64,000 bases of DNA from a bacterium (GTDB lineage: Bacteria; Bacillota_I; Bacilli_A; RFN20; CAG-826), in contig CAVEMS010000002.1 in assembly GCA_963616935.1 (NCBI GenBank), forward strand, positions 64,396 to 128,395, given 5' to 3'. Below the pieces are notes generated by a model. That model saw only the letters and a program-made list of their open reading frames with translations, was not told where the DNA came from and did not search any database. A program made the translations under genes and the position numbers. This document shows, piece after piece, positions 4,767 to 58,743 of the stretch (positions are counted from its first letter, which is position 1; every line of letters starts with the position of its first letter).

Positions 4767-4841
4767 TGGTTGCGGGGAGTGGACTTGAACCACCAGCCTT
4801 CAGGTTATGGGCCTGACGAGCTACCATTGCTCTACCCCGCG
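4767..4841 (-). tRNA. tRNA-Met (anticodon CAT), initiator-like
   Basis: Cloverleaf read directly from the sequence: acceptor CGCGGGG/CCCCGCA with a C1-A72 mismatch, T8, D-stem GAGC/GCTC with A11:U24, anticodon loop CCCATAA (CAT), T-arm GGTGG-TTCAAGT-CCACT, discriminator A and an encoded CCA. C1-A72 and A11:U24 are hallmarks of the bacterial initiator tRNA. Confidence 0.85.
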
Positions 4842-41013: not shown

Positions 41014-42008
41014 TGAAGCTCTCTAACGAGATAAAGCAATACGCGAAAGCGAGGAAAAAAGAATACTCCGCTTTCTATAAGGCAGTAAAGAAATACGACC
41101 GCATCTGCATTTTCAGGCACATCAAACCGGATTTCGACGCCATGGGCTCGCAAATGGGCCTATACACCTTCCTAAAGGAGAACTTCCCAAATAAGGAAAT
41201 CCATTACGTCGGGGATAACCACGTCACTTTCACCCCTAGGATCTTTCCGGAGACCGAAAGGCTTAACGACTCTTGGTTCGATACGCCATTCTTGGCTATC
41301 GTCGTCGACGTCGGAGACGATGAGAGAATCGCCGATCCGCGTTATAAGAGAGCGGCCTACGTAGCCAAAATAGACCATCACCCATCTAAGAGTGAGATCT
41401 CCCCTGCCCCGATCGTCGATTTAAATAGCGCAAGCGCGGCCGAACTCGTTTGTTCGGTTTTGCTAAACTGGAAGGGAACCTCCCTTTCGAAAGAAGCGGC
41501 CAAATACTTCTATATCGGCATCGTCGGCGACAGCGGACGCTTCCTCTATAGCAGCGTCTCTTCCCATACCTTTGCGATAGCCGAAGCCTTAATCGCCACC
41601 GGCATATCCATCAATTCGATATACCTATCGATGTATGAGAAGAAATTAGACGATCTGAAAGTCACGGCATACGTTCTCAATCATTTCGAGGTCTCTCCGC
41701 ATGGGGTGGCCTACTATTGCTTGGATGAGAACGTCCAAAAAGAGCTTTCCATCACCTCCGAAAGAGGGAAGGAAAACGTCAATCTCTTCTCGAATATCGA
41801 AGGCATCAACGCTTGGTGCTCGATAACCGAAGACCCTAATCCCAAGGATTGGTGCTGGAGGATAAGCATCCGTTCCAAAAAAGCCGATATCAGCGGCATC
41901 GCCAATAAATGGGGAGGAGGCGGCCATAAACAGGCTTCAGGCGCCAAGATAAAGGATCTATCGGAGCTCCCGGCATTTATCAAAGATCTCGACGATTTAT
42001 TCTGCTAA
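41013..42008 (+). CDS. nrnA: DHH/DHHA1 phosphoesterase, bifunctional oligoribonuclease / pAp phosphatase NrnA-like
   Basis: 331 aa with DHH motif KIDHHPS and DHHA1 motif GGGGH. Its start overlaps the ackA stop (TAATG). Confidence 0.8.
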   Translation: MKLSNEIKQYAKARKKEYSAFYKAVKKYDRICIFRHIKPDFDAMGSQMGLYTFLKENFPNKEIHYVGDNHVTFTPRIFPETERLNDSWFDTPFLAIVVDVGDDERIADPRYKRAAYVAKIDHHPSKSEISPAPIVDLNSASAAELVCSVLLNWKGTSLSKEAAKYFYIGIVGDSGRFLYSSVSSHTFAIAEALIATGISINSIYLSMYEKKLDDLKVTAYVLNHFEVSPHGVAYYCLDENVQKELSITSERGKENVNLFSNIEGINAWCSITEDPNPKDWCWRISIRSKKADISGIANKWGGGGHKQASGAKIKDLSELPAFIKDLDDLFC

Positions 42009-42029
42009 TCGTAAATCGATAGCAATCAA

Positions 42030-42091
42030 GCAATCTCATTGGCAATCGGATGGATTAATCCAGTAACCGCCGATGGAGATTGCTTTTTTCA
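42030..42091 (+). terminator. intrinsic terminator after ackA-nrnA
   Basis: GCAATCTC ... GAGATTGC followed by TTTTTTC (42085-42090); the stem extends imperfectly (CCGCCGATGGAGATTGC). Confidence 0.5.
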
Positions 42092-42989
42092 TGGCGCGCT
42101 GATGCATTTATATCGATAATTAGATGCGTTTGAATCCGGTGGCGATACAAACATCGGCAATCAAAAACGACCATTCATACGAGCCGTTTATGATGCTTAT
42201 GCGTTGTACAGTGTTTCTTTATTTCAGGTTGCCTTTATTCTTGAAGACGGTATGTAGCTCAATGAGTTCAAGAAGTTCTTCACGTTCAACGCCTTCAAAT
42301 GCAATTCGAGATATGTAAGAATCATCTGCTTTTCATTGCGATGTGGCATATTTGAAGACAATTCAAGATTCGTACCCCCATGGCTTCGCTAATCAAAATG
42401 TTTTTTGCATCATTTCTTTCAACGAAAATTAATCTTTCGGAAAATCAAATAATCTTTCGGAAGATTAATAAAAGCGACAAATAACACAATGAATTTCGTC
42501 TTCGTCATTTTCGACATCTTATATTCTGAAACATACCCATATATTTGGATAAATTGCACGGGTCGCCATTCTCGAACAGATTGAAGTTAGCTTAGCTTTG
42601 TTTGTGGTTTTTCTCGCAAAGAATGAAGGATTAGAATAGGCGAACCACACGCACCGCACCTTTTTCGATTGATGATTTTTTTATGTAAGATCACAATGCG
42701 AAGTTTTTTGTTTTCTTGATGCCACAGTCGAGACGCATCACAAAAAGCTTTCAAACAATGAGATGATGAATAATAAAAACATACTAATATTATTTTTAAT
42801 ATAATTATTACTTTTACATTTAATAATGTTTAATTAATTTATAATGCATAATAACGAACTTATTTATGCAAATGCTTACTTATATATTTCATTCTTTTTT
42901 GGTGAACCATAACAAAATTGTTAATCTATTTATGTTGTAATTATATTATTTAGAATATATTATATTAAAGAAAAAGAGGTTATATTTAT

Positions 42990-44324
42990 ATGCGAATAGT
43001 CCGGACAATCGAGAAATCGTTAATCAAATCGCTCGAGGAAAGCAACAATATATTGATTGAAGGCCTGCCTTTCATTGACAAAAAATTTTTGATTGAATCA
43101 CTCCTTTCAGAAGGTAAATTCGGATGTTATAAATGCGACTTAAACAATTATTCGCATATCGATAAACTGACTTCCTATTTAAGCGAAAACAGCCAAAGAA
43201 AAGGCGATAAAAATTCGAAGAAAAACGTCTTAATTCTGCACATCGAGAAAAACATCGGTTTATTGAAAACTTTACTAAATCAAAATAATGCTGATTTTCG
43301 CTACATTTTTGTTAGCGATGTAATACTTGATGGTTTCCAAAACTCCTCTAATTTAGACGTATTCATGATCAAACCCCTTAACTTTTTAGAATTTCTTTAC
43401 TCATGCGGCCTAAAGAAAGACGATTTGGAAAAATACAAGAATCGGGCGTTTGAAAGTATCAACGAAGAGAATGAGTTGACTTCAAAACTATATTCATTAT
43501 TGGATGTCTATTCACTTATCGGCGGCATTCCTAAGTGCGTGGACGTCTATTTATCTTCCGGAAACCTAAACAAAGCTCTGAAAGCGAGAGACGAAGCCTA
43601 CGCCGAATTCAACGAATCGTTCCTTTCGCTATGCGCCGCTTCTTTGATGTCATCCGACGCCAAAGATATAAACGCGATCCGAAACGCCAAAAAAGCCTTC
43701 GAATCGATTCCTCCATATCTCTCTAGCGATTCATACGATTATAAGTTCTCTTTCATATCTCCTTCGTCAAGGAAGGATTCATATATCTCATCTTTCAATT
43801 GGATAAGAAATAACGGATACGTTTGTTTATCCACTCGTGCGAACCCTTTTGTTCCAGCCACGAATGCCGAAGCAAACTCCTTTAAGGCCTATCTCCCTGA
43901 TATCGGCCTAGAAATGTCCGCTTTGAAGGTTAATGACATCAATCCTCATAACGGTCGTCTGATCGATCTTTTGATTGCCGATTCGCTATTCAAAAATGGT
44001 GCATCGCTAGAGTACATATTCGATTCAAAAACTCATGAGAAAGTCGATTGCGTCGCCTTGCGCGATGGGCATTATGAGATATATAAGACGTCTGGCGACA
44101 AGAAATGCGCCTCGCTATATTCGAAAACGGCCTCCGTTCTAAACGCTTCCAATGTCTATAACGTTATGTATGACACAAAGGGAAAGAATCAAAAAGAGCC
44201 ATTTAAGAACGTCGATGTCCTCGACGTCATGTTATCCATATGCGAATCCGAAAATAATGCGCATCAAAAAGAAAAGGAAGATATCCAAGCGATAGAAATC
44301 GATCCAGATTCCTTTTTGTCCTAA
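42990..44324 (+). CDS. degenerate COG1373/DUF4143-like protein (paralog 3) with eroded Walker A/B motifs, predicted to be ATPase-inactive
   Basis: Same length (444 aa) and C-terminal DUF4143-like block (EYIFDSKTHEKVDCVALRDGHYEIYKTSG) as paralogs 1 and 2. The Walker A position reads GLPFIDKKF and the Walker B position LILHIEKN. The local GC is about 37%, against about 47% for the window. AAGAGG RBS. Confidence 0.5.
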   Translation: MRIVRTIEKSLIKSLEESNNILIEGLPFIDKKFLIESLLSEGKFGCYKCDLNNYSHIDKLTSYLSENSQRKGDKNSKKNVLILHIEKNIGLLKTLLNQNNADFRYIFVSDVILDGFQNSSNLDVFMIKPLNFLEFLYSCGLKKDDLEKYKNRAFESINEENELTSKLYSLLDVYSLIGGIPKCVDVYLSSGNLNKALKARDEAYAEFNESFLSLCAASLMSSDAKDINAIRNAKKAFESIPPYLSSDSYDYKFSFISPSSRKDSYISSFNWIRNNGYVCLSTRANPFVPATNAEANSFKAYLPDIGLEMSALKVNDINPHNGRLIDLLIADSLFKNGASLEYIFDSKTHEKVDCVALRDGHYEIYKTSGDKKCASLYSKTASVLNASNVYNVMYDTKGKNQKEPFKNVDVLDVMLSICESENNAHQKEKEDIQAIEIDPDSFLS

Positions 44325-46280
44325 CTATTCCTCTTCGCTATATATAAGTCCGAACTTATGTAAATAACAGATGACGACGGTTCCCCAGCCATGGCAAAGG
44401 CTTCCGGCGTTTTCGAAGGCTCTCCAACCATCCATCGTCTCCATGAAACAAGTCGCCCCCTCTTTCTTTTGGGCGTCCATGATTTCATTTATATCGCTAA
44501 GGATATATTCCCTCGCGGATGGATTATCCGCCTTAAGAATGGCATCGTATAAAAACCTTCTCATGCTTAAGCTCGTCGGCACGAGGCCATATTTCACTGG
44601 ATCCATTATCTTCTTCGATATATCGAGTTCCAGGCTTTTGGGAGCGATGCCGCTAAGGATGGCCAAGGAATTACCTAAGACATTGCACGATGGATTCAAA
44701 TCGCTCATATGATATAAACCTTTATCCCAATCGAAGAAATGATCATGAGATTTAATGCGTATATCATTAATTAAACAGGCGTTATCGGATGATATTCCTA
44801 CCTTATTAGATAGATAATCATAAGCTTCTAACGCAATGACGAATAAGGAATTGATGACGATGTCGCTCTCTTTTTTTCTTTTTTCCATCAATCCATCCGC
44901 GAGTCCGTCCATCCATTCGTAGAAATTCCATTTGCCTTCGCCTTCGAAGGTCATCGCCAAACCGTTTTCCATATTGTCTTTGAAAGCGGATACTATCTTT
45001 TCTATCCTTGGAAGCGCCTCATAAAGGAAGGATTTATCGCCTGAAGCGTCGTAATAGCTCTTAACGGCCAAGATATAGAAAAGAGAGAAGCTAGGTATCG
45101 TAAGCGAGACATTGCTAGGAGCGCATATAGGAAGGAGTCCATCTTCTCTATCGTCCACGGCGAATAGCCTCAGAGAACTTCTGATCTGCTCAAGGTTCTT
45201 AAAAGCGAGAAAGCCGGCATCAATTTGATTAAGACTATCCAACGCGTATAGGCATTGCTCACGCCATGGGCAATCCTCGTAATGCTCATGATAGCAGCAT
45301 TCGAGGGTATAAACGGCCATGTCGTATATCTCCTTAACTGAATCATCGACAAACGCCCATTCCCTCTTATCGAACGGATAGACGCACGGATATAAGGAAA
45401 TCGACGGTTCGATATCGAAATCATCGTCTCCTATCACCTCAATATAACGGCATCCAAGCCTAAGAAACCCTTCGAAGAATCTGTTTCTTCCTTTTTTTAG
45501 TTTGACGTCGATTGAGAAGTTCCTGTTTTCGATCAAATACACCAATTCATTATCATTTAAGTGTTCAGCGTAGGTTATCTTGATCTTTCTTTCTTTCTCG
45601 GATTCGATATCGAGCGCCAAATATCCGACCGTTTCCTTCCCTAAGTCGTAGCGGTATCTTCCTTTACCGATATGGATAGGCTTAGGAGATAATGGCGAAA
45701 GGAGCTCGCATTTCTTATTTCTCCTTAGCTCAGGCGATGCGTCGTTCCTATCGACTATGACCGCATTAACATACTTTAAATCATTCTCATCTTTCGTTAG
45801 ATCGATGCTTAGTCTGTATCCCAGTTGCGGCGTTATTCTTTCCTTAAGTCCCGATAGATATCTATTCGATTCGGCTACCAAGGAGTCCTCACTAGACACA
45901 TATAAGATCTCATCGCCTTTCGAGATAACGAATATGATCGACGCCTTCTGGGCGAAGTAACTGCTAAAGCCATCGCTGCCTAAGTGATAAGCGTAGATTT
46001 TGAAGGTGTTGGTGCCACGCTTCGCCTTAAGAGACACCGAATCAACGATTGGATGCTTAGGATACGACGGGCTTTGCGAGAAGGAGGACAGCTCATCATT
46101 CAAAAAGAACATGTAGTTCGTGTCGGCGGATATATCTAATGTGACATCGGAGTCGCAATCGAGCACGAAAGAACCTTTTATGACGATATATTGATCGTCG
46201 AATGATTCCTTGGACCATATCCATTTCGCATTAGACAGTCTGTCGTTCATCGATTTGTTCTCTATAGCGTAGTTATCCAT
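44325..46280 (-). CDS. six-hairpin glycoside hydrolase, alpha-L-rhamnosidase-like (GH78-related)
   Basis: 651 aa with N-terminal AKWIWS, an EDCPWREQ motif resembling the GH78 DCPQRDER block, and C-terminal SLCHGWGT shared with the 59836-61455 gene. Confidence 0.45.
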   Translation of the reverse strand: MDNYAIENKSMNDRLSNAKWIWSKESFDDQYIVIKGSFVLDCDSDVTLDISADTNYMFFLNDELSSFSQSPSYPKHPIVDSVSLKAKRGTNTFKIYAYHLGSDGFSSYFAQKASIIFVISKGDEILYVSSEDSLVAESNRYLSGLKERITPQLGYRLSIDLTKDENDLKYVNAVIVDRNDASPELRRNKKCELLSPLSPKPIHIGKGRYRYDLGKETVGYLALDIESEKERKIKITYAEHLNDNELVYLIENRNFSIDVKLKKGRNRFFEGFLRLGCRYIEVIGDDDFDIEPSISLYPCVYPFDKREWAFVDDSVKEIYDMAVYTLECCYHEHYEDCPWREQCLYALDSLNQIDAGFLAFKNLEQIRSSLRLFAVDDREDGLLPICAPSNVSLTIPSFSLFYILAVKSYYDASGDKSFLYEALPRIEKIVSAFKDNMENGLAMTFEGEGKWNFYEWMDGLADGLMEKRKKESDIVINSLFVIALEAYDYLSNKVGISSDNACLINDIRIKSHDHFFDWDKGLYHMSDLNPSCNVLGNSLAILSGIAPKSLELDISKKIMDPVKYGLVPTSLSMRRFLYDAILKADNPSAREYILSDINEIMDAQKKEGATCFMETMDGWRAFENAGSLCHGWGTVVICYLHKFGLIYSEEE

Positions 46281-46782
46281 ATAACGTTCTTTCCTGTTCG
46301 TCCATCAATATGCACCATCTAGAGAGAATGGTCAAAAGAATGGCGAAGATAAACAAAAATGCAATGAGGATAGGCAATATTTTCTATGCGGTTCATAGCA
46401 TCTATTTGATTTAGCTTGCAGACGATAGTTTTTGCAAAAAGTTTTCGAGTTATTTAAGACAACGCTGCTCCCAAACCGTTTCTTTTCAGCTCGCGCCGAT
46501 CGCCTAGAAAAGTCAAAAAACTACCGCGCGGGCCAAAAACGCAATTTGGCTTGGCGCGAAAACCTGGCGAAAGCGAAATTTGCTAAGCCGAATTGAGCCC
46601 GCCTTTCGAAAGCGGAAATTACTTTTGCAATTTGCGAAAAAAATGAATCTTAATTTTCGAAAATAAAAGCCACAAAAAGAGTTTTTTGTTTCCTTCTATG
46701 GTTTTTGTTTCGGTCTTATTTTAATAGACTTAATAAACCTTTTTCACAAAAAGCTCTAATACGATTATTAATGTTTTTCCTT

Positions 46783-47720
46783 TTATTGCATATCTTCGAA
46801 TTCTTCAAAGATTTCTTCTATATATTGGTTTCTTTTAAGCAAACAATTCGTAATTTTGTCGATCGCTTTGTCATCCGTCATTCGTTGCAATCTCTTTTCT
46901 GCCAATTCCCTTTTGCCTTCTGGGGCGTTTTCCGGATTCAATGGGTCAAATCTCGTACCGATATTTTTAAGATAGCTCCTTAAATCATCCTTATTTCTTA
47001 TATTATTTTTTTCATAAAATTTAGGACCCCAACCGAATAAAAGGTTTCTGTGTATATCAATGGATAAAAATGGCCTTCATGACAGCCTTCTTTACTAAAA
47101 ACCTCAGAAATTCCGACAGAACCAATCATTGGCAGTCCAAATTTATAAATAAGCGGAATCATAAATGCAAAATAATTTCCCGCTTCTTTAAGGCCCATCA
47201 ATTCAAATGGGAGCTCTCTTAAGATTTTATGTTCATCCGTCGGGTTATCGTAAAAATCGTCGGGAACGTTTTCTTGAATCCTTTTGTTATTCATATATTC
47301 CGCAATGTTCATATACTGCTCAAACAAATACATTTCGTTCTCATTGAATGACTCATTAATATACCTACCTACCTACGGTTTTTAGATATCCGGACCCGTA
47401 TTCAACGAAATCGCCATCGCCACGAACAATTTCTTTTAAATCCGTCATTCTCATTCCGTTTTTAAATAAGAACTTTTCGATTCCCTCGCTTGTTGCTGTT
47501 ATGAAAAAACAACATGAGTCAATTTATTAATTTCATCATAAGACTTTGTTTGCACTTCCTTTAATGCATCGGATTCGCTCATCCCATGATAAAGCAACAA
47601 TGCGTAATAGTGCGCTAATTTACCTGGACAGAGTTTTAGTTCCCCAGGGACTTCGTAAGCCTCTTCAGAAGATATGAGATCTTCCATTTCTTCATCATTT
47701 TCATCAAAAATTTCTAGCAT
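46783..47720 (-). pseudogene. hypothetical gene split into four frame segments by shifts at T6, (TAGG)n and A7 tracts
   Basis: Segment A is 47499-47720 (73 aa). Segment B is about 47378-47523 in the +1 frame (…SEGIEKFLFKNGMRMTDLKEIVRGDGDFVEYGSGYLKTVGR). Segment C is 46998-47333 (111 aa). Segment D is about 46783-46997 (…NNIRNKDDLRSYLKNIGTRFDPLNPENAPEGKRELAEKRL…DMQ*). A joins B with +1 nt in the T6/A6 tract at 47504-47509. B joins C on loss of one TAGG unit at about 47362-47377. C joins D with +1 nt in the T7/A7 tract at 47006-47012. The region is about 33% GC. Confidence 0.55.
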
Positions 47721-47986
47721 TTTTTCTTTTTTCGCTCATAGGCATAAAAATCACCTCTATACATTAATTCGTAATTAAATTTTAGATTTTATATTCCGTT
47801 TTGGAAACTATTAATAGAAAAATGTAAATTTTATACTTAACTTCTCGCTTTAACCACTTTCGGAATTTCTCTTTTAAAGAACGTTGTAGGCGATGATAAA
47901 TCATCGGCCTTTAAGCGCGAAAAAAAGGTCACGAAACAAATGCAATGTAGAATCCGGCAGCAAATGACAGCCATCAAAAAACGGCT

Positions 47987-48916
47987 TTATCGGCTTTTGC
48001 CTTTACCCAAAAGAGGCGCGAACCAAAACAAAGATCCGAGATTTTCTCCCCTTCTTTCCTTCGAATAACGATCCATCATTGCTTTGAATAGCATCATGCA
48101 AGCGGCAGCAAACATATAGAACAAATCTATGTCATCCGTGTTTTGAATGACGTTCATATGGGCGAACGATAGGTAATCCCCGCCACCGACCTCAACCATA
48201 TCCCATATGACGGATGCTGAGATTTCGCGATAATCGTCAAGTTCTTTGTCGGACAATCCCTTCTTATCGTCCTTATAGATATTGAATATGCATCTCTCGG
48301 TATTGGTCCTAACGAAATAACCGGTCTTATTGCCTTCGATTATGAGTTCGAAATCGACACCCATAGAGATCTTGGCTATCTTCTCCTTCTTCTCGTTTAA
48401 TAGCCATAACGCAAGATTCTTTCCCTTAGAAAAACGAAGGTAATAGAACGGATCCTCGTCTTTGATGATGCGAAAGCAATATCCTCCCTCATCCCTCATC
48501 TTGTAATAAACGTTCTTATCAGGGCCGAACGCAGGATGTTTGAAGATCTGGCCACTTAAACACATAGAGCCATCAACCGCGTTAGTCAGGCTAAACATCC
48601 GTTCGGCTTCCTTGTCACTAAGAAGTTTGAAGTCGTTTTTAGTATTGGTAGCCTTTTTATTCCAATACTCGGCACTACCTTTGATTATCTTCTCGATCTC
48701 TAGGAAATTCGTGGCCGCATATCTGAAATTCTTAATGGCCTCGATAGCGTCGTCGAAATCGGCGATATGGTTAAGCCTATCGAACGCCGCCTTATAGAAA
48801 GAATCACGATCGATTTCGTCCGCTTTAGCGATATAGCCAAGCCCTTCGAAGATGGTCTTGACGTTAGTTAGAAGCACCTTCGTCGATATCGGCATGACAG
48901 TCTTTCTCTTTCCCAT
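47987..48916 (-). CDS. hypothetical protein
   Basis: 309-aa ORF with coding-like composition and no recognisable motifs. Confidence 0.5.
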   Translation of the reverse strand: MGKRKTVMPISTKVLLTNVKTIFEGLGYIAKADEIDRDSFYKAAFDRLNHIADFDDAIEAIKNFRYAATNFLEIEKIIKGSAEYWNKKATNTKNDFKLLSDKEAERMFSLTNAVDGSMCLSGQIFKHPAFGPDKNVYYKMRDEGGYCFRIIKDEDPFYYLRFSKGKNLALWLLNEKKEKIAKISMGVDFELIIEGNKTGYFVRTNTERCIFNIYKDDKKGLSDKELDDYREISASVIWDMVEVGGGDYLSFAHMNVIQNTDDIDLFYMFAAACMMLFKAMMDRYSKERRGENLGSLFWFAPLLGKGKSR

Positions 48917-50059: not shown

Positions 50060-50407
50060 CTAGACGACCTCGATCTCCTTGATGTTTTTCTCATCGCCCT
50101 TTATGAGATAGGTGTGCTCACTATGGCAATGAGGACAGATCTTCGCGTATTTGACCGTTTCGTAGGTCTTTCCGCAATCCTCGCAATAGGTGACCGCTTT
50201 AACGACGTCGATCTTTAGAATCGTGTCTTTTAGCGGCTCCTCTTCCTTATGGACGGCCCACTTCCAGCAATCCTCAAGATAAGAGGGAATCAAAGTCGAG
50301 ACCTCGCCCACTTCGAGAGTGACACTATTGACGTGCTTGACGTCGTTCTCTTTGGCGATTTCCTTTAGCTCGTCGATGATATGGAAGATGATGCCTAATT
50401 CATGCAT
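50060..50407 (-). CDS. hypA: hydrogenase/urease nickel-insertion metallochaperone HypA
   Basis: 115 aa with N-terminal MHE (Ni site) and two CxxC pairs (CEDC ... CPHC) for the structural Zn. Confidence 0.8.
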   Translation of the reverse strand: MHELGIIFHIIDELKEIAKENDVKHVNSVTLEVGEVSTLIPSYLEDCWKWAVHKEEEPLKDTILKIDVVKAVTYCEDCGKTYETVKYAKICPHCHSEHTYLIKGDEKNIKEIEVV

Positions 50408-50409
50408 GG

Positions 50410-53319
50410 TTACTTGCCTTTGGCGGCTTTCTTCGCCTTCTTTTGGGCTTTCTTATATTCCTTATGCTTCTTTTCGGAGGCTTTCTCCTCGGCCGTGTGC
50501 TTGCCGAATTTTATCTTGACGCCGCGCTTGATGGCGTACGGCAAAATCAATTTGAACTTATCCTCGGCCTTAATCATCTTGGTGGCCTCTGGATGGTCGC
50601 GCTTCAAGGAGATGGCGTCGAACATGCACTTGGTCGTGCAAATACCGCATCCGATGCACTTATTGGGATCGACGATCGATGCGCCGCAAGAAAGGCATCT
50701 CTTGGTCTCGATCTTGACTTGCTCCTCGGTTAGCGTCATATGGGCATCCTTAAAGGAATGATGCGAATCGATCGAAGGATCGAAGCCCGCCTCTTGTCTA
50801 CCGATAGTGTCGTATTCCTTGATGGAGATATCGTTTTTATCGAGCATCTTGAAGTCGCGACGATTACGCCCGATTGTTAGTGAGGCACCGACATGGACAT
50901 AACGGTGAAGCGATTCGGCTGCGCACTTGCCTTGTTCGATCGCGTCGATCGCGAAACGTGGGCCAGTATAGACGTCGCCTCCGACGAAGATGTCGTTTTC
51001 GGCGGTTTGGTAGGTCAAAGGATCGGCAACCGGATAGGCTCCATGATATTCGACTTTGCTGCCTTTTAGCAAATCGCCCCAAACGATCGCTTGCCCGATG
51101 GCGAAGATGACCTTATCGGCCTTGACTTCGATTGTCTCGTTCTCGTCGTATTTGGGACTAAACCTTCCATTCTCGTCTTTCGTGGATAGGCATTTCTTGA
51201 AGACGACGGAAACGACATTGCCGTTATCGTCTTTCTTGACTTCTTTCGGTCCCCAGGAGTTATTGATTTCGATTCCTTCTTCGAGGGTTTCGGAGATCTC
51301 CTCTTTGCTAGCGGGCATCGTCGCTCTATCCTCAAGCGAGAACATCGACACTTTCGATGCGCCGAAACGGATGGCGGTTCTGGCCGCGTCGACAGCGACG
51401 TTTCCACCACCTACGACCACCACTTCCCCATCGATCTTCTGATCGTGGTTATCGGTGGCGCCATGAAGGAATTCAACGGCCGTGGTGACGCCTTTCGCGT
51501 CTTGCCCATCGATTCCAGGGAGCCTCGCCCCTTGGCAACCGATGGCGATATAGAAAGCGGCGTACCCTTCTTTCCTTAGGTCGTCTAGCGTTATATCTTT
51601 TCCGACTTCGACGCCGGTTTTGATCGTGACGCCAAGTTCCTTAATGACCTCGATTTCCGCTTCGATGACGTCTTTCTCGAGTTTATAGGAAGGGATGCCG
51701 TACATTAGCATTCCGCCGCACTTAGGATTCTTCTCGAATATCGTCGGCTTATAGCCCTTGGTGGCAAGATAATAAGCGCATGACAAACCGGCTGGGCCGG
51801 CGCCGATGATCGCGATCTTGTCTTTCCATTCATCAAGCCTATTGCTCGCGATCACCACTTCTGGGATATAGCGGGTCTCCGCCTTAAGATCCTGCTCGGC
51901 GATGAACTTCTTGACGGCGTCGATAGAGACGGCGCGATCGATATCGCCCCTCGTGCAGGCGTCCTCGCAGCGTTTGTTGCAGATTCGGCCACAAATCGCC
52001 GGGAGAGGATTGTCTTTCTTAATGAGGGCGAGGGCTTCCTTGTATTTGCCTTGCGAGGCGAGTTTAAGATAGCCTTGGACGGCAACGTGAGCGGGACAGG
52101 CGGTCTTGCAAGGCGCAGTGCCCGTGTCATAGCAGTTTATACGGTTGTTATCGCGGTAATTCTCATCGTATTTGTCTTCTCCCCAGCTCATGTTATCTGG
52201 GAGCTCATGCTTCGGATAGACGACGTTAGAGCCGTCTTTCTTACAAAGCTTCTGTCCGAGTTTGACGGCGCCGGCTGGGCAATATTCGACGCACTTGCCG
52301 CAAGCGACGCATTTGCTAACGTCGACATGGGCCGTATAGGCGCTACGCGACATATTGGGGGTGTTGAATAATTGCGACGTTCTCAAGGCGTTACAGATGT
52401 TGACGTTGCAATTGCAGATGCCGAATATCTTGTTTTCGCCATCGATATTGGTGATTTGGTGGACGAAGCCGTTATCCTCGGCGACCTTGAGTATCCTCAT
52501 CGCCTCTTCGTAAGTGATGTCATGGCCTTTGCCGGTCTCACGGCAATAGTCGGCGAAATCGCCAACGCCGATGCACCAGTTGTATTGATCGTCGGCGCAT
52601 CCTTCTCCAAGAGCGGCTCTCGAAGCGCGGCAAGAGCATTGCCCAACGCCGATATGGCCTTCGTATTTCTTTAGCCAGTAGGAAAGATGTTCCAAATCGA
52701 CGGACTTATTCTCCATCGATATGGCCTTTTCGACTGGGATGACGTGCATTCCGACGCCCGCTCCGCCAGGAGGGACGAGCTGGGTGATGCCCTTTAACGG
52801 GATATAGGTCATCCTCTCGAAGAAAGAGGCGACGGTAGGATGATCCTTCAAACGGGGATTGTCCATCTCCTTGCCGTCTTTGGTTATGAATCTCTCTTCC
52901 ATGTTGAAGAGCTCGGCGCTGCCAGGGACGAACAAAGGAAGAGTGTATCTCCTTTCGCCTAGCGGAGCGGTTCTTCCATTATGGTCATAATGATAGCCAT
53001 AGTCGTATTCGAGCAAGCCAATATAGGCCATCTCGTCCAAGAGCTTTTGGAATTTCTCTTTGTCCTTGGCTTTCTCCTTGTTCTTTTTGCAAAGTTCTTC
53101 GAAGGTATAGTGATGGCGGAGTTTCATCGTGAGGGCGACATCGGCCATCTCATCGGTGACGATTTCCGCAAGGCCCCAATATTCTGGGTCCTCTACTTTC
53201 ACTTTGCCGAGCTTATGTGCGGCAACATCGGTGATTTTTTTACCTAATTTCAATATTTTCTCATTAGGTTCCTTGTCGCTCATATGTGGAGGAACGACGG
53301 CTTTACTCATTTCTGGCAT
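50410..53319 (-). CDS. multidomain iron-sulfur flavoprotein: unknown Cys-rich N-terminal domain, 2x[4Fe-4S] ferredoxin, GltD/DPD-like FAD/NAD(P) oxidoreductase, C-terminal ferredoxin
   Basis: 969 aa. The motifs are CVACGKCVEYCP and CKTACPAHV, then ICGRICNKRCEDAC (Cx3Cx3Cx3C, DPD/GltD type). Next come IAIIGAGPAGLSCAYYLA (FAD), VVVVGGGNVAVDAARTA (NAD(P)) and CLSCGASIVDPNKCIGCGICTTKC. The N-terminal roughly 330 aa carry an unassigned QCSCRASRAALGEGCADDQYNWC...YCRETGKGH...GICNCNVNIC cysteine cluster. Confidence 0.7.
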   Translation of the reverse strand: MPEMSKAVVPPHMSDKEPNEKILKLGKKITDVAAHKLGKVKVEDPEYWGLAEIVTDEMADVALTMKLRHHYTFEELCKKNKEKAKDKEKFQKLLDEMAYIGLLEYDYGYHYDHNGRTAPLGERRYTLPLFVPGSAELFNMEERFITKDGKEMDNPRLKDHPTVASFFERMTYIPLKGITQLVPPGGAGVGMHVIPVEKAISMENKSVDLEHLSYWLKKYEGHIGVGQCSCRASRAALGEGCADDQYNWCIGVGDFADYCRETGKGHDITYEEAMRILKVAEDNGFVHQITNIDGENKIFGICNCNVNICNALRTSQLFNTPNMSRSAYTAHVDVSKCVACGKCVEYCPAGAVKLGQKLCKKDGSNVVYPKHELPDNMSWGEDKYDENYRDNNRINCYDTGTAPCKTACPAHVAVQGYLKLASQGKYKEALALIKKDNPLPAICGRICNKRCEDACTRGDIDRAVSIDAVKKFIAEQDLKAETRYIPEVVIASNRLDEWKDKIAIIGAGPAGLSCAYYLATKGYKPTIFEKNPKCGGMLMYGIPSYKLEKDVIEAEIEVIKELGVTIKTGVEVGKDITLDDLRKEGYAAFYIAIGCQGARLPGIDGQDAKGVTTAVEFLHGATDNHDQKIDGEVVVVGGGNVAVDAARTAIRFGASKVSMFSLEDRATMPASKEEISETLEEGIEINNSWGPKEVKKDDNGNVVSVVFKKCLSTKDENGRFSPKYDENETIEVKADKVIFAIGQAIVWGDLLKGSKVEYHGAYPVADPLTYQTAENDIFVGGDVYTGPRFAIDAIEQGKCAAESLHRYVHVGASLTIGRNRRDFKMLDKNDISIKEYDTIGRQEAGFDPSIDSHHSFKDAHMTLTEEQVKIETKRCLSCGASIVDPNKCIGCGICTTKCMFDAISLKRDHPEATKMIKAEDKFKLILPYAIKRGVKIKFGKHTAEEKASEKKHKEYKKAQKKAKKAAKGK

Positions 53320-53333
53320 GGTTATCTCCTTTG

Positions 53334-54005
53334 CTATTCCTTGATTTTCTTTATTTCGTTATCGATCCACGAGGCGAATTCATCGATCCCCTCGTCCTTC
53401 TTGGCCGATATCGGGATTATCTTGGCGTCTTTGTTCCGATATAGGATGTTCTTCTTAGCTCTATCGAGCGAGAAGTCGAAGTAAGGCGCGACATCCATCT
53501 TGTTTATTAGGAAGAGGGAGCACACTTGATACATGAGAGGGTATTTAAGCGGTTTGTCATCCCCTTCTGGCACGCTTAGGATATTGACGTTAACGTGGGA
53601 GCCGGTATCGAACTCAGCTGGGCAAACGAGATTGCCGACGTTTTCGATGATGATGAGATCGAGATCCTTAGTTGAGAGAGATTCGATGCCTTGCCTTGTC
53701 ATATCGGCGGTCAGATGGCACATGCCGCCGGTATGGAGTTGGATGGCTTCGACGTTGCCTAGACCTGAGATGGTCTTCGCATCGATTTCGCTATCGATGT
53801 CGGCTTCCATCACGGCGATTTTGTATTTGTCCTTGAGTTTCGCAAGCGTCGCCATGAGGGTCGTGGTCTTCCCGCTTCCCGGCGAGGACATAAGATTGAT
53901 AAGCAACGTCTTTTTCTCTTTTAGTTCTTTACGTAGCTTGTTTGCTTCATCTTCGTTGGATTTGAAGATGTTTTGCTTAATTTCGATGATTCTTACTTGA
54001 TCCAT
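53334..54005 (-). CDS. hypB: nickel-insertion GTPase HypB
   Basis: 223 aa with P-loop SSPGSGKTT and the HypB hallmark ENVGNLVCPAEFD. Confidence 0.85.
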   Translation of the reverse strand: MDQVRIIEIKQNIFKSNEDEANKLRKELKEKKTLLINLMSSPGSGKTTTLMATLAKLKDKYKIAVMEADIDSEIDAKTISGLGNVEAIQLHTGGMCHLTADMTRQGIESLSTKDLDLIIIENVGNLVCPAEFDTGSHVNVNILSVPEGDDKPLKYPLMYQVCSLFLINKMDVAPYFDFSLDRAKKNILYRNKDAKIIPISAKKDEGIDEFASWIDNEIKKIKE

Positions 54006-54299: not shown

Positions 54300-55424
54300 A
54301 TGCTAAGGAAAGCATTCATAGGCGCGTTATCTTCTCTCTCACTCATCTCGATCCTCGCTTCTTGCGGGACAATCGACAAAACGGAGTTAAAAGACGCCCC
54401 GATAAGCATGGATGAGAAGTTCGGCGCGGCGATAGTAAACGCCCCTGTCTCATCATTTAACGACTCCGGATTCTCGCTTGGAGATAGTTGCGACGTCATC
54501 TTTAGCAACGGCTATTCCTTAAGCGACGTCCCCTATTTCAACGGCTATTACGTCAAAAACGGCGACCCGGTCATCGTCGCCTATCCTGGCGATAGCAACA
54601 TCCGAATAACCTTAAATAACGTCGGAATCTGGGAGACAGCCAATTTGTCGGAAGAATACACCGTCACCATAACCCTAAAAGAAGCGAAGAAATATCTGGC
54701 TACCCAAGAGGCCTTGGGACAAAGCTATTCGTTCGAGAGAGACAAATATAATAGCGACGAGGAATTCGCGAATTTCCGCGCATTGAAGGGCGGAACGCTC
54801 AAAGAGAATCTCTTCTACCGCGGGGCAAGCCCCGTCGACAATAGCCGTAACCGTGCCAAAACCGTGGACGCATTGCTAGAAAAGAACGGCATTAAATCCA
54901 TAATGGATCTTGCCGATAGCGAAAGCGATATGCAAACCTATTTCTCGATCCCCGATTTCTCTTCGAATTATACCAAGTCCTTATATTTGAACGAGAAAAT
55001 CTCGTTATTATCGATGGGCTCTTCCTACTCTTCTCTCTCCTATAAGCAAAGCGTGGTCAAGGGCTTCAAGCATATATCAAGCACCGAAGGCCCTTACTAC
55101 ATCCACTGCATGGAAGGAAAAGACAGAACCGGATTCGTCTGCACGTTATTAGAGGCTTTGGCGGGCGCTAGCTACGATGAGATGCGAGACGACTACATGA
55201 CGACCTACAAGAATTACTATCGGATAACGTTAGAGAAGACGCCTGAGAAATATAACGCCGTCGTTTCCCTTTATTTCGATTCCTTCCTCGAGGAATTACA
55301 TAAGACGAGCGACGTCGAGACGTTAAAGAAAGCGAATTATATAGAAGACGCCAAACGCTATCTAAGCGAAGGCGGCATGAGTGAAAGCGAGATCTCCTCC
55401 TTCATTTCGGCAATCAACGGATAA
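54300..55424 (+). CDS. lipoprotein with a C-terminal protein-tyrosine/phosphoinositide phosphatase domain (Y_phosphatase3-like)
   Basis: Signal/lipobox LISILASC and the CX5R active site HCMEGKDRTGFV. GGAGAA RBS. Confidence 0.65.
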   Translation: MLRKAFIGALSSLSLISILASCGTIDKTELKDAPISMDEKFGAAIVNAPVSSFNDSGFSLGDSCDVIFSNGYSLSDVPYFNGYYVKNGDPVIVAYPGDSNIRITLNNVGIWETANLSEEYTVTITLKEAKKYLATQEALGQSYSFERDKYNSDEEFANFRALKGGTLKENLFYRGASPVDNSRNRAKTVDALLEKNGIKSIMDLADSESDMQTYFSIPDFSSNYTKSLYLNEKISLLSMGSSYSSLSYKQSVVKGFKHISSTEGPYYIHCMEGKDRTGFVCTLLEALAGASYDEMRDDYMTTYKNYYRITLEKTPEKYNAVVSLYFDSFLEELHKTSDVETLKKANYIEDAKRYLSEGGMSESEISSFISAING

Positions 55425-55430
55425 GCGATA

Positions 55431-55468
55431 AAAAAACGGATGCCTTTTTCGACAGACATCCGTTTTTC
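55431..55468. terminator. bidirectional intrinsic terminator between the phosphatase lipoprotein gene (+) and lipoprotein paralog A (-)
   Basis: AAAAAA-ACGGATGcctttttcgacagaCATCCGT-TTTTCG. Confidence 0.6.
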
Positions 55469-55475
55469 GTTTTCC

Positions 55476-57026
55476 TTAATCCTGAACCCAGGTGAATGAG
55501 GAGTAGCAATTGATGACGAGATAGATTTTGCCAGCCTCGATATTTAAGTATTGCGTGTCGATCGAAGGCAACTCGCGAGGTTCGCCATTGACATAGATGG
55601 CTTGCGATATCTTCTCGCACCTCTCATCTTCGCCAGACGTCCAAGGCAAGAAAACGCTGGGGGAGGTGGAAGTATCGTGCACGGTTATTCCCTTAAAGAT
55701 TTTGCGATGCGTTTCCGTCGCCCTATTCGTATCGATTATCGTTATGTCCTCAACGTTGACGACTGCAGCGCTATTCGAGGACGTGTCGGGCATCTTTTCG
55801 TTAACTTTGGCGTAGAGGATCCTAGTGTCGGAGCCGATTGGCTGATCGACATAAGGAATCGTGCGCTCTTCATCGGTGTATAGGGTCACGACGTCGCCAT
55901 ATTCCCAAGTAATCTGCGAGCCGATTTTCGTGTTTATGGGATTTTCCCATAGATAATCCATGTAGTAGATATCGACCGACACCTCAGCGCCTAGCCCAGA
56001 ATCGACGCTTCCATCGATTTGGCTAAGACACTCGGCGGATACCTCGCTATCGAGCTCGCGGGCGAAAGTGACTTTATAGCAATAGTCGACGACTTCGTAT
56101 GCGCCAATCGGGTATTTGTAAGAATAGATGTCCCTGACTTCGAAGCCGGACAAAAGACCGTCTTTCGCATAAAAGATCGCTTTGAAGTCCATGTGTTCTA
56201 TGGCTTCGTACGAATTATCATCGCAGCCGAAGGCGATTTCGAAAGCCGTTAAGCCATCAACCTCATAAACGTCGCAAGAAGATAGGCCAACTTGGCTTAT
56301 TAACGATGGGAAGGCAGCGAGGAAATCGTCCATTTTGTCGTTATTCACGATCCACTTTGCGTATTGGGAAAAGCTTGTATCCATATCATCGATGTTCGTG
56401 AATAGATTATCGAAAAGATATGAAGCGTAGCCTTCGTCGGAAAGGTATTGGGTTTTCGAGGAATCGTCTATCTCATAATATCGATATTCGCCATCCGCAT
56501 TATCATTAGTCGAAATGATATATGCGTTGCTGGTGGTCTCTGTCCCCTCTCTGTCCATAGAATCTTCAACGGACTTGCTATAGTAACGGCCATTCTCGCG
56601 ATCTAACGTCGCTTTTTGGGTTATCACGTCGCTAGTTATTATCGTGCCAGACTTGTAAGACAAGATTTTTGTCTCAGTGACGAAAGAGAGGTTTCCTTCA
56701 TAGGCGAGAAATTCATTAAGCGCCGTTTGGACTTCCTTGTAGTTGACGTCTTTGGCGTTATCGACGTATCCGCAGACTTTGCAAGTCGGGTATCCGTCCT
56801 TCGTCTCAAAATCGTGCGCCTCGTAGTCATAACGCGGCTCCTCAAGGCCACAATCGCAGATGTGATAATGACCATAGGCATCGTACTTATATTCTTCGGA
56901 GGCATGGTGAACGTGCGTCGATGGGTCGACGCTTTGCTTCCTTTCCTTCGCCATCAACAGGCAAGAGCTAAGAGACGCCGCGCTTAAGGCGAAGAAAGGG
57001 ACCAACAGTATCTTCTTGTTCTTCAT
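55476..57026 (-). CDS. surface lipoprotein with a His/Cys-rich N-terminal module, paralog A
   Basis: 516 aa. Signal peptide plus lipobox LSSC, followed by HVHHASEEYKYDAYGHYHICDCG...AHDFETKDGYPTCKVCGY. The rest is D/E/Y-rich. Confidence 0.6.
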   Translation of the reverse strand: MKNKKILLVPFFALSAASLSSCLLMAKERKQSVDPSTHVHHASEEYKYDAYGHYHICDCGLEEPRYDYEAHDFETKDGYPTCKVCGYVDNAKDVNYKEVQTALNEFLAYEGNLSFVTETKILSYKSGTIITSDVITQKATLDRENGRYYSKSVEDSMDREGTETTSNAYIISTNDNADGEYRYYEIDDSSKTQYLSDEGYASYLFDNLFTNIDDMDTSFSQYAKWIVNNDKMDDFLAAFPSLISQVGLSSCDVYEVDGLTAFEIAFGCDDNSYEAIEHMDFKAIFYAKDGLLSGFEVRDIYSYKYPIGAYEVVDYCYKVTFARELDSEVSAECLSQIDGSVDSGLGAEVSVDIYYMDYLWENPINTKIGSQITWEYGDVVTLYTDEERTIPYVDQPIGSDTRILYAKVNEKMPDTSSNSAAVVNVEDITIIDTNRATETHRKIFKGITVHDTSTSPSVFLPWTSGEDERCEKISQAIYVNGEPRELPSIDTQYLNIEAGKIYLVINCYSSFTWVQD

Positions 57027-57042
57027 CGTTATACCTCCACCA

Positions 57043-58584
57043 TCAATATATGAACGTGGTCTCTGACCAGTATAGGAAATAGATCTTGCCCGCTTCTAGC
57101 GTGAATTGGCCGACGATTTCCTTTCCATCCAAAGTGAGTTTCGTTCCACAGTATTTGGTATTTCCGTGATAAGTGAAATTCGGACTATAGGCGCAAGGAG
57201 CGGAGTATGAGTTCACACTCAGAACAAGTTTTTTTCGTTTTAAGAAATTAAAATCCATGAGCAGGCATTCTCGATCGAGGAGCTCCCATACGAGAGCCTG
57301 ATCGGATGCCGGTTCGAGCGGCTTGACGTATAGCGCGCTATAGCTCGTGTCTAGAACCTGATCGGTATAAGGAATCGTGCAATCCTTGTCGATATAAAGA
57401 TCGGCGTATGTATGATAGTAATCGCTTGACCAATCGTGTTTTTCGCCAATAGTAGTGTAGATGGTGGACAATTCGTATTCGCCTAAAAACACAGGAATGG
57501 AGAACGAATACGCTTGGCTGGATGCCTCATATTCGCTTTCATCCGGTTTATTTGACTCATAAAGAGCCTGATCGAATTCTTTTTGGAAAGTGATATTTGT
57601 CGTCTCGTATTCGATTTCATCATGCCCGCTTGGATTAAGCTGATGGCGTTCCCAATAGAAATTCAACGCCGAGACGAAATCGTCCTTGACGCTTAACGCA
57701 AGATAGAATGAGTACGACTCAATCTCATTGTCGTAAACTTCTGCGAATGCGATTTCTATCGCGTAAGTGACGGTCCCATCGTCAGAGAGGGCGATACTCG
57801 GAATAAGCTCAGCGTTCTCAATGTCAACAATGAAACCAAAATCATCCTTCAAGTCGTCGAAATTAGTTGCATTTACCATGGCCTCAGGGAAGTCGAAGAG
57901 CTCGGAATCGCTGAAGAAATCGCTAAGCTCTAGACGCGCCACGCCATTATCTGCTTCGCAAACCGTTTTGTCGGTGTCGCTATTTTTTTGGAAATATTTA
58001 TAACCGTTAGCATCATCGCCAGAAACATAGGAAAGGAGACTTTCGGAACTCGAATAGGTCTCGTTTTTATAGTCATAGACAGCTTTGGTATCCGTCTCCT
58101 GCAAGCAATATAGGTTATTGGTTGCACCGTATGTGAGGTCGCATTCACGTGTCGAGAGCCTTTTCGGAAGTTCGTTCTCATATTTGTTTATCGTATACAC
58201 CATTTTGCAGGACAAATCGCCATCGTAGGAGACGTAATTCTTTATGCCGGAGACGAAAATCTTGGCCAATCTATCGTACTCAACGATCGGTAAAGTGTAG
58301 GAATAGCCGCACACTTTGCACGTTCTGACTCCATCTTTTTCCTCATATTCGTGGAGCGCATAGTTGAATCTCACATTCTCATCGCACTTATCGCATGAGT
58401 GATAGTGGCCGTTCTCATCGTATTTGTAACTTGTGGCCGCGACGTGGGCATGCCCAATGGCATCACCGCCATTGCCATTATCGACACGATTGCCCGAACA
58501 TGCCGCAAGCGGCATGAGACATAACGTCATCGATGCCAGCAGTAAGTTTTTTCTTTTTGACATCAAAAAAAACCTCTCTTTCAT
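57043..58584 (-). CDS. surface lipoprotein with a His/Cys-rich N-terminal module, paralog B
   Basis: 513 aa. Lipobox LAAC, followed by HAHVAATSYKYDENGHYHSCDKCDEN...LHEYEEKDGVRTCKVCGY. It is tandem with paralog A, 16 nt apart. Confidence 0.6.
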   Translation of the reverse strand: MKERFFLMSKRKNLLLASMTLCLMPLAACSGNRVDNGNGGDAIGHAHVAATSYKYDENGHYHSCDKCDENVRFNYALHEYEEKDGVRTCKVCGYSYTLPIVEYDRLAKIFVSGIKNYVSYDGDLSCKMVYTINKYENELPKRLSTRECDLTYGATNNLYCLQETDTKAVYDYKNETYSSSESLLSYVSGDDANGYKYFQKNSDTDKTVCEADNGVARLELSDFFSDSELFDFPEAMVNATNFDDLKDDFGFIVDIENAELIPSIALSDDGTVTYAIEIAFAEVYDNEIESYSFYLALSVKDDFVSALNFYWERHQLNPSGHDEIEYETTNITFQKEFDQALYESNKPDESEYEASSQAYSFSIPVFLGEYELSTIYTTIGEKHDWSSDYYHTYADLYIDKDCTIPYTDQVLDTSYSALYVKPLEPASDQALVWELLDRECLLMDFNFLKRKKLVLSVNSYSAPCAYSPNFTYHGNTKYCGTKLTLDGKEIVGQFTLEAGKIYFLYWSETTFIY

Positions 58585-58743
58585 AAGCGTATAATAGCAC
58601 GATTTCGGCGTATTACAATATCAGTGGGAGAGGCGAAGGAATTGGCGCTTTCAGTCAAACGGATAAAGAGAAATTGACGATGCGCCGTTATAAACGTTTC
58701 ATACAAAAAGAAGAAAATGTCCAAAAATCGGCGCAGAGCCCAT

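Follow-up and report, generated by a model that had tools for sequence, protein, structure and literature searches.

Genes A and B lie side by side on the minus strand of the window (the whole 64,000-nt stretch of DNA that was analyzed, in which the standard genetic code is used and the GC content is ~47%), and only 16 nt separate the stop codon of B from A. Gene A (55476..57026, minus strand) appears in the ORF list as a lipoprotein gene of 516 aa and has a GGAGG ribosome binding site (RBS) 8 nt upstream. The longest ORF for gene B starts at 58584 and has 513 aa. However, we consider that the start is most likely the ATG at 58563, giving gene B the coordinates 57043..58563 (minus strand) and a lipoprotein product of 506 aa, based on the GAGAGG RBS (58578-58573) situated 9 nt upstream of this ATG, the fact that the upstream ATG is not conserved (the sister species has GTG at this position) and the lengths in public annotations, 506 aa (P0003) and 508 aa (P0004). 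In addition, the predicted -10 box and the ATG at 58584 are 7 nt apart. An earlier sequence-only reading of this locus had given lengths of 516 and 513 aa; the first agrees with our analysis and the second is most likely an overestimate.

A consensus scan identified a promoter-like site ahead of B (58591..58618, minus strand; a pattern match), consisting of TTGTAA (58618-58613), a 16-nt spacer and an extended -10 element, TGnTATTAT (58599-58591), and both hexamers and the TG are kept in the sister species (L001-L003). B and then A are predicted to be co-transcribed as a two-gene operon. At the other end of the pair an inverted repeat at 55432..55467, with 14-nt arms that are 93% complementary, specifies a hairpin that has a run of T on each strand. 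This hairpin is likely a bidirectional terminator, common to A and to the convergent gene at 54300-55424.

Both proteins begin with a signal peptide and lipobox, as determined from the translations and the family alignment: MKNKKILLVPFFALSAASLSSC in A (56961..57026, minus strand) and MSKRKNLLLASMTLCLMPLAAC in B (58498..58563, minus strand). Each has a positively charged N-region, a hydrophobic core and a lipobox of the form [LVI][ASTVI][GAS]C (MKNKK...LSSC in A and MSKRK...LAAC in B). Cys22 is the residue to be lipidated in both proteins and is nearly invariant in alignments of the 26-27 family members. A Cys/His module begins 16 residues past the lipobox Cys in each protein, following a linker of ~15 residues, and occupies residues 38-88 in A (HVHHASEEYKYDAYGHYHICDCGLEEPRYDYEAHDFETKDGYPTCKVCGYV; 56763..56915, minus strand) and in B (HAHVAATSYKYDENGHYHSCDKCDENVRFNYALHEYEEKDGVRTCKVCGYS; 58300..58452, minus strand), the latter having been annotated as a ZBD/CTD4-like Cys/His domain. 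An HMM built from 265 module instances in other proteins scored these two modules at 82 and 83 bits, respectively (E about 1e-25), which is far beyond chance, and detected A and B as the only carriers in the 64-kb window. The arrangement described in the sequence-only reading, two adjacent same-strand lipoprotein genes with a shared module after the lipobox, was recovered in all its parts (ORFs, lipoboxes and modules).

Nine candidate ligands are retained in both modules: H38, H40, H53, H55, C57, C59/60, H71, C82, and C85. Across A, B, and their two orthologs the invariant residues are H38, H40, Y46, K47, D49, G52, H53, Y54, H55, C57, E62, Y68, H71, E74, K76, D77, G78, and the run T81-C-K-V-C-G-Y87. 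This conservation bears out the pattern noted previously, except for the spacing of the middle Cys residues, which had been given as C-D-x(1,2)-C and is actually C-D-x(0,1)-C (CDC in A and CDKC in B). The AF2 model of A places five short strands in the module (residues 42-48, 52-57, 66-70, 73-76, and 79-82), with a pLDDT of about 80, a secondary structure compatible with small three-stranded antiparallel sheets set end to end.

A and B are 27% identical over 440 columns (BLASTP, E 6e-26), close to the "about 30%" that had been estimated by eye, and are paralogs. Word-indexed homolog searches with A and B returned matches only in the same species and in one sister species. The relatives of A so found were P0001, which is 99% identical, and P0002, the ortholog in the sister species, which is 68% identical, while the sister-species ortholog of B is 58% identical. 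Both orthologs are syntenic and their neighborhood is conserved, strain variants of A and of B are 99% identical, and in a neighbor-joining tree of the family A and B are not sisters. By these sequence comparisons, A and B are ancient, deeply diverged paralogs of a family of ~500-aa lipoproteins in gut Bacillota.

The remainder of each lipoprotein, a body of ~420 aa, has no sequence similarity to Pfam families or PDB entries. The AF2 model of A, made from a 26-sequence alignment, has a pLDDT of 84.5 and a pTM of 0.75, shows short beta-hairpins in the module and predicts a central half-barrel domain at residues 91-338 (56013..56756, minus strand), for which the pLDDT is mostly above 90. In the model this domain starts with a helix and comprises 11 antiparallel strands with three helices at its center. 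It is followed by C-terminal beta domains at residues 339-516 (55479..56012, minus strand; alignment and AF2), which contain the motif that is best conserved in the family, LY-x-D-x3-T-x-PY ... LY-x-K, with Y383 invariant and D385 and Y405 nearly invariant. In an hhalign comparison the first C-terminal domain matched Flg_new at 78%, a hint that spans only 28 columns and one of four test repeats. Foldseek searches of the PDB with the body gave weak matches to 4eg9/4egd, 4big, LmcA, and the ApoB/MTP/lipovitellin barrels (E 6e-5, TM 0.2-0.38, rmsd 9-15 Å), with many GFP and porin false positives alongside, and a Foldseek search of a viral structure library gave nothing meaningful. With its predicted 11 antiparallel strands and three-helix insert, carried on a lipoprotein, the central domain may resemble the LolA/LppX-like half-barrel lipoproteins and the staphylococcal lipoproteins SAOUHSC_02783 (4eg9) and Csa1B (4big), which gave the best of these Foldseek matches. 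The body has, in addition, two further beta domains. We consider the body to represent an uncharacterized lipoprotein family which probably binds a ligand.

The only relatives of the module that have been described are two domains of an IgA protease. A search of PDB sequences with the module profile matched the IgA protease chain 9qa6_A twice (E 6e-22), and the profile of the lipoprotein family alone also matched this chain (E 2.5e-6). These matches were reached by profile only, as the PDB search with single sequences found nothing. In direct comparisons with the ZBD2 domain of the protease, the B module gave an E of 1e-6 by BLASTP and an alignment of four module sequences gave 96.2% (E 2.3e-9) by hhalign. 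On the strength of these alignments, the A/B module and ZBD2/CTD4 of the IgA protease from Thomasclavelia ramosa are homologs.

The IgA protease (IgAse/ThomasA, Q9AES2, 9qa6_A) has two such domains, ZBD1 and ZBD2, equivalent to CTD2 and CTD4, which were described in 2025 as a predicted, uncharacterized zinc-binding rod or "periscope" (PMC12415215, PMC12237041). Their zinc sites are AI-predicted, "putative ... pending experimental validation" (PMC12237041), and are fully coordinated in the predictions (PMC12415215). SAXS of CTD2 fits an extended rod, and the authors propose that the zinc is purely structural and that the domain acts as a periscope or stalk; they leave additional functions and zinc regulation open (PMC12415215). 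Catalysis by the protease does not require the ZBD/CTD domains (PMC12402451), and no disulfides were seen in its structures, whether experimental or predicted (PMC12237041). The A/B module and the protease domains have in common the pattern H-x-H ... [WY]-x2-D-x3-H-[WY]-H-x-C-x(1,2)-C ... H ... C-x2-C-G-Y, their location on an anchored extracellular protein and the prediction of short antiparallel sheets (PMC12237041); the counterpart regions in the protease are the beta-sheet domains beta3, beta4, and beta6. The modules of A and B are nonetheless compact, have Tyr in place of the two Trp and have a short second half (E-x-KDG-x2-TC) that does not have the ~10-residue insertion of the protease. 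They are also N-terminal, beside a lipid anchor, whereas the protease domains are C-terminal, beside a sortase anchor, and there is one module per protein, attached to a body that is unrelated to the M64 protease.

Beyond the IgA protease the module is widespread. The A1 profile search retrieved 186 representative clusters at E<=1e-3 and exhaustive profile searching placed the module in more than 140 protein clusters. With a module-only HMM we counted 322 instances in 143 of 152 proteins, at any position and in one to seven copies each. Of the ligand positions in 265 instances, H53 is conserved in 100%, C82 and C85 in 99% and H40 in 97%, with the other positions at 74-85%. This conservation agrees with the proposal in the sequence-only reading that a discrete extracytoplasmic Cys/His domain lies between the lipid anchor and the divergent body, and from the retained ligands that domain is most probably metal-binding; loss of the His and Cys residues in further relatives, which had been named as grounds for abandoning the proposal, was not seen. 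Nearly all instances have a middle knuckle of the form C-x(1-4)-C or C-x-H; in 51 instances Cys is exchanged for His in a compensatory manner, never with a paired loss.

All of the partner domains of the module are extracellular: LRR_5 (BspA-type LRR), Big_2, pectate lyase, CBM77, GH123, CBM26, Flg_new, SLH, and M6 protease. Among 142 module proteins, 77 are lipoproteins in which it lies inside the first 70 residues, although this enrichment next to the lipobox is an overestimate because the search profile contained the signal peptide. Within the body family, one monophyletic subgroup retains the body but has lost the module completely. Pfam and NCBIfam scans of A, B, the modules in isolation and each of the 26 family members identified no family at threshold, the best sub-threshold matches of the module being to Zn_ribbon_3 (15 bits, cutoff 27) and Zn_ribbon_CSL (15 bits, cutoff 29). 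A match to DUF5382_C was dismissed (14 bits against a cutoff of 25). In our literature search the only descriptions of the module were those in the IgA protease papers. The distribution in sequence databases indicates that the Cys/His module most likely serves gut Bacillota as a generic, mobile unit from which surface proteins are built, rather than in metal uptake.

We favor, as somewhat better than an even prospect, the interpretation that the module is a zinc-stabilized stalk of the ZBD2/CTD4 type, serving as a structural spacer between the lipid anchor and the body. We read it as a spacer rather than as a metal-scavenging or nickel-linked device because it belongs to a widespread stalk domain. 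In the proposed arrangement the lipid-modified Cys22 would anchor A and B at the external surface of the membrane, and two structural zinc ions would be held in the module by its nine candidate ligands. Judging from the conservation levels, one site would probably include H40, H53, C82, and C85, and the other H55, C57, C59/60, and H71. According to the IgA protease model, small three-stranded beta-sheets placed end to end and held by tetrahedral Cys/His zinc sites would form a rigid rod. Such a metal-stapled stalk may replace disulfides in an anaerobe and keep the functional body off the membrane, where the predicted half-barrel and helical plug, reminiscent of lipoproteins of the LolA/LppX type and of staphylococci, and the two beta domains behind them probably bind a ligand. 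As one module of ~50 residues lengthens the protein by no more than a few nanometers, the case for a pure spacer is weaker in A and B than in the multi-copy arrays.

The role proposed here is the same as that of the periscope and stalk domains (the G5-E repeats of SasG/Aap, Rib, and the InlB B-repeat/Flg_new), namely that of a rod-like, non-globular spacer which projects a functional domain, and some other proteins combine the module with Flg_new, Big_2, and SLH domains. However, it has no sequence or fold relationship to the SasG/Aap, Rib, and InlB-type stalks, and its rigidity would come from putative Cys/His metal staples. The C-terminal knuckle, C-x-V-C-G-Y, resembles that of rubredoxin (rubredoxin matches at E 0.04-1). 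Compared with the classical zinc ribbons, the module has extra invariant His residues and about two putative sites per 50 residues, and it is extracellular.

Several other explanations were weighed against the stalk. The sequence-only reading had suggested metal scavenging or an adhesin function and held a nickel link to be conceivable but unproven; under the scavenging view the module would capture Zn or Ni and perhaps supply nickel to HypA/HypB. The module is indeed His/Cys-rich and extracellular, hypB is 1.5 kb from the pair and this neighborhood is kept in the sister species, yet we hold such a function to be very unlikely indeed. The module is a generic repeat, found also in tandem arrays, on proteins of unrelated function, and its relatives in the IgA protease are read as fully coordinated structural sites (PMC12415215). 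Neither A nor B has a substrate-binding-protein fold or a Pfam/NCBIfam match of the ZnuA/AdcA/NikA type, and there is no ABC importer beside the pair, the flanking genes being those for an alpha/beta hydrolase and a Y_phosphatase3 lipoprotein. A riboswitch scan (NiCo or other) and an operator-palindrome search upstream of gene B found none. Furthermore, hypB and hypA, together with a 969-aa gene, belong to a different transcription unit that lies beyond the convergent gene and the terminator, and hyp neighbors are absent around family members elsewhere (L005, L007, and L008). The current understanding of metal homeostasis is unchanged by these genes, and we see no reason to keep the nickel idea. 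A metal-free module, in which the cysteines form disulfides or a Cys-stabilized knot, is likewise very unlikely. While extracellular Cys residues are often oxidized and metal binding in the module family is putative, the module His residues are as conserved as the Cys residues, the swaps of Cys for His without paired loss are at odds with disulfide pairs, the IgA protease structures have no disulfides (PMC12237041) and the hosts of the module are gut anaerobes.

Recognition or oligomerization is an unlikely role but a better one than those above: the module could mediate zinc-dependent self-association or adhesion, as does the G5 region of Aap/SasG, or formation of an A-B heterodimer. In Aap the zinc is surface-bound and mediates dimerization (PMC12415215). 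Consistent with such a role, the predicted co-transcribed A and B have exactly one module each, two tetrahedral sites would use eight of the nine conserved candidate ligands and leave one over, and the IgA protease authors have left extra functions open. Conversely, the predicted sites are fully coordinated with no free position for bridging (PMC12415215), the subgroup that has no module keeps its body, and the module partners are many different domains. Finally, the suggestion that A and B are antigenically variable surface proteins of a Mollicutes-like organism, arising by recent duplication and diversifying selection, is not supported by our comparisons and is scarcely credible to us. It draws on the tandem arrangement of two surface lipoproteins that are so divergent outside the module, but the two are deep, non-sister paralogs with syntenic orthologs and near-identical strain variants, in an organism that uses the standard code and has a GC content of ~47% here. 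No tandem repeats were found in the A/B region, and a search for inverted repeats found only the terminator hairpin and one 14-nt palindrome within the A coding region, with none flanking the promoter and no signature of an invertible element. A T8 tract is identical in three strains.

Returning to the zinc-stabilized stalk, a bolder version of it is that the module defines a large Bacillota family of extracellular zinc-stapled stalks whose folding, and hence the height and exposure of the attached domains at the surface, depends on gut zinc. We regard this as unlikely. If true, zinc sequestration by the host would remodel the bacterial surface, including its lipoproteins, adhesins, and enzymes, and the single module past the lipid anchor in A and B would make display of the body zinc-responsive. 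In the IgA protease papers the ZBD/CTD2/CTD4 domains were a curiosity of one enzyme and had no structural homologs; the same Cys/His unit is now seen to be common. As there is no Pfam or NCBIfam model for the module, our alignment is a ready seed for a new domain family, and the ~420-residue body defines a further uncharacterized lipoprotein family. The compact, single-copy variants of ~50 residues, such as those of A and B, are convenient for tests of zinc binding and for determination of the fold.

Genes A (55476-57026, minus strand; 516 aa in the ORF list) and B (57043-58584, minus strand, as the longest ORF) encode paralogous lipoproteins with 27% identity (BLASTP, E 6e-26). Both have an N-terminal lipoprotein signal peptide (lipobox: A, LSSC; B, LAAC), with Cys22 as the lipidation site, and in both a shared module of ~50 residues begins 16 residues past this Cys. 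The module residues identical in A, B and their orthologs are H38, H40, Y46, K47, D49, G52-H-Y-H55, C57, E62, Y68, H71, E74, K76-D-G78 and T81-C-K-V-C-G-Y87; the spacing of the middle cysteines is C-D-x(0,1)-C, and not C-D-x(1,2)-C as given in the sequence-only reading. That reading correctly recognized B as a lipoprotein ORF at 58584, but its length of 513 aa should be revised. The true start is almost certainly the ATG at 58563 (57043-58563, 506 aa), based on a GAGAGG ribosome-binding site 9 nt 5' of this codon, on the 7-nt distance between the upstream ATG and the predicted -10 box, on the replacement of that ATG by GTG in the sister species, and on public gene calls of 506/508 aa.

We consider B and A to be a two-gene unit because a promoter-like sequence, TTGTAA-N16-TGnTATTAT (58618-58591, minus strand; a pattern match kept in the sister species), precedes B, the 16 nt between the B stop codon and the A start codon contain a GGAGG site, and a hairpin of 14 bp (55432-55467), with T runs on both strands, lies 3' of A. 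The hairpin is common to a convergent lipoprotein gene (54300-55424, plus strand), whose product has a signal peptide ending LASC and a Y_phosphatase3 (tyrosine phosphatase family) domain, and which adjoins the A/B pair in the sister species too.

Word-indexed searches with A and B returned only 99% identical strain variants and the sister species, whose orthologs (68% identity for A, 58% for B) have the same gene order. When 1.84 billion cluster representatives were searched exhaustively by HMMER with a four-sequence full-length profile (E<=1e-3), 186 clusters matched, in two classes. Members of the first, the body family (~25 clusters, 460-540 aa), aligned over their full length, nearly all having a lipobox. 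The second comprises >100 clusters of 73 to 2587 aa whose match is confined to the module (profile positions ~35-90).

The body, the ~420 residues of A and B beyond the module, represents an uncharacterized lipoprotein family. Its alignment preserves the lipobox Cys and a motif, LY-x-D-x3-T-x-PY...LY-x-K, in which Y383 is invariant and D385 and Y405 are nearly so. The AF2 prediction rose from a pLDDT of 48 with four sequences to 84.5 (pTM 0.75) with a 26-member family alignment. In this model residues 1-33 are a low-confidence signal peptide and linker, residues 42-82 (the module) form five short strands (pLDDT about 80), residues 91-338 contain a long helix, 11 antiparallel strands and three central helices, and residues 339-516 form two beta domains. 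A and B were not sisters in a crude neighbor-joining tree of the family, calculated without bootstrap support values, suggesting that their duplication is old. In the same tree, the seven members that lack the module altogether form one clade. The family is represented by one copy each in L005 and L007, and P0012 (L008) has no upstream paralog, its contig ending just past the gene. A distant member (27% identity; L005, 9809-11356) has four or five S-C-P-[TS]-C-P-[ED]-[AS] repeats between lipobox and module, placing additional cysteines beside the membrane anchor.

Run on 152 proteins, a module-only HMM identified 322 instances in 143 of them, with 1-7 copies each in N-terminal, internal or C-terminal positions; A and B are the only carriers in the 64-kb window. 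Conservation was counted over 265 near-full-length instances (A/B numbering): H38 74%, H40 97%, H53 100%, H55 74%, H71 77%, C57 76%, the second middle Cys about 85%, and C82 and C85 99% each, together with an aromatic at 46 (97%), D/N49 (99%), an aromatic at 54 (99%), G86 (86%) and Y87 (80%). Instances without C57 read H-W-H-x-x-T-C-x-H, so the middle knuckle is C-x(1-4)-C or C-x-H nearly everywhere. Judged from sequence, such Cys-to-His swaps with an unchanged number of candidate ligands would be expected of a metal site and not of a disulfide. Every partner domain is extracellular: BspA-type LRR_5, Big_2, pectate lyase with CBM77, GH123, CBM26, Flg_new, SLH and an M6 metalloprotease domain. 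One example, from a genome scan, is a 595-aa protein of Candidatus Timburyella stercoris (Clostridia), whose single module precedes a linker rich in Ser and a hydrophobic anchor segment at the C-terminus. A lipobox (simple pattern) was present in 90 of 142 module proteins and the module lay within 70 residues of the N-terminus in 77, although this fraction is biased upward since the signal peptide was part of the search profile.

Scans against Pfam and NCBIfam gave no model covering the module. Against all PDB chain sequences, a 50-instance module profile matched 9qa6_A, "IgA protease" (E 6e-22), which has two copies (chain residues 906-965 and 1070-1133); the next-best matches were rubredoxin knuckles only (E>0.03). 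The body-family profile, made without the broad module set, also matched this chain (E 2.5e-6), as did the B module its second copy (BLASTP, E 1e-6) and the four modules of the window and its orthologs the same copy (hhalign, 96.2%, E 2.3e-9). 9QA6 is from a study of the Thomasclavelia ramosa IgA protease (IgAse) in which the regions are named ZBD1 (E879-T1008) and ZBD2 (G1101-T1171); in AI models these are three-stranded antiparallel sheets linked via putative tetrahedral zinc sites of 2 His and 2 Cys, one site having 3 Cys and 1 His (PMC12237041). An independent study calls them CTD2 and CTD4, found isolated CTD2 to be a folded, fully extended rod by SAXS, in agreement with the model, and argued that the predicted zinc sites have full coordination and a purely structural role (PMC12415215). 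A third study found the beta-sheet domains to be dispensable for catalysis (PMC12402451). In the literature we found no description of the module beyond the IgAse studies.

The module is a new compact member, close to the lipid anchor, of a predicted domain type first described in 2025, and its predicted strands are compatible with the sheet-after-sheet picture of ZBD2. Conservation of its His and Cys residues in further relatives backs the earlier proposal that a discrete extracytoplasmic domain, probably one that binds metal, lies between anchor and variable body. We favor a structural spacer over a metal-acquisition site because LRR adhesins, glycosidases, CBM arrays, proteases and S-layer-anchored proteins also carry the module, often in tandem, and because a clade within its own family of lipoproteins has lost it. 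On balance it probably serves as a stalk that two zinc ions staple together. From the conservation hierarchy we infer that H40, H53, C82 and C85 would form a near-invariant site, and H55, C57, C59/60 and H71 a more variable one. That the IgAse "ZBD" is widespread with a strongly conserved ligand pattern is a useful by-product, and the module merits a Pfam entry.

Nickel scavenging for HypAB had also been suggested. The hyp genes are indeed near A and B (hypB, 53334-54005; hypA, 50060-50407; both minus strand), but they lie past the convergent gene and are, therefore, not co-transcribed with the pair. No hyp genes adjoin the family members in L005, L007 or L008. Operon structure, other members' neighborhoods, domain content and the absence of regulatory signals all leave this link unsupported. 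Antigenic variation is likewise unsupported, the paralogs being old and each syntenically conserved, with strain variants 99% identical and no repeats or switch elements found at A/B. A T8 tract (58565-58572, minus strand) separates B's ribosome-binding site from its start codon; three strains share T8 and three sister-species contigs have T7, giving no sign of slippage-based switching.

Between hypB and hypA is a gene for a 969-aa FeS/flavin oxidoreductase (50410-53319, minus strand), an order kept in the sister species (L001, L002, L009). The first ~330 residues of this protein are Cys-rich, and its ortholog has Fer4, Fer4_20 and Pyr_redox_2 domains; a nickel-chaperone pair flanking a GltD-like enzyme is an unusual arrangement. 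Of the nearby genes examined, none was seen to encode a hydrogenase, urease or CODH. A Mollicutes assignment, as the earlier reading implied, is only putative: translation follows the standard genetic code, GC content is about 47%, and the closest named MAG is labeled uncultured Staphylococcaceae bacterium. Elsewhere the window is saccharolytic, with positions 1-50000 encoding a GH36 melibiase, GH2, glycogen phosphorylase, branching enzyme, rhamnosidase-like proteins and two ABC exporter genes. A tRNA-Met (4767-4841) was the only Rfam family found in the window. Within 42001-48000, the 2-kb bins at 42-44 kb and 46-48 kb have a GC of 35-37%, versus about 47% elsewhere, and may be horizontally acquired DNA.
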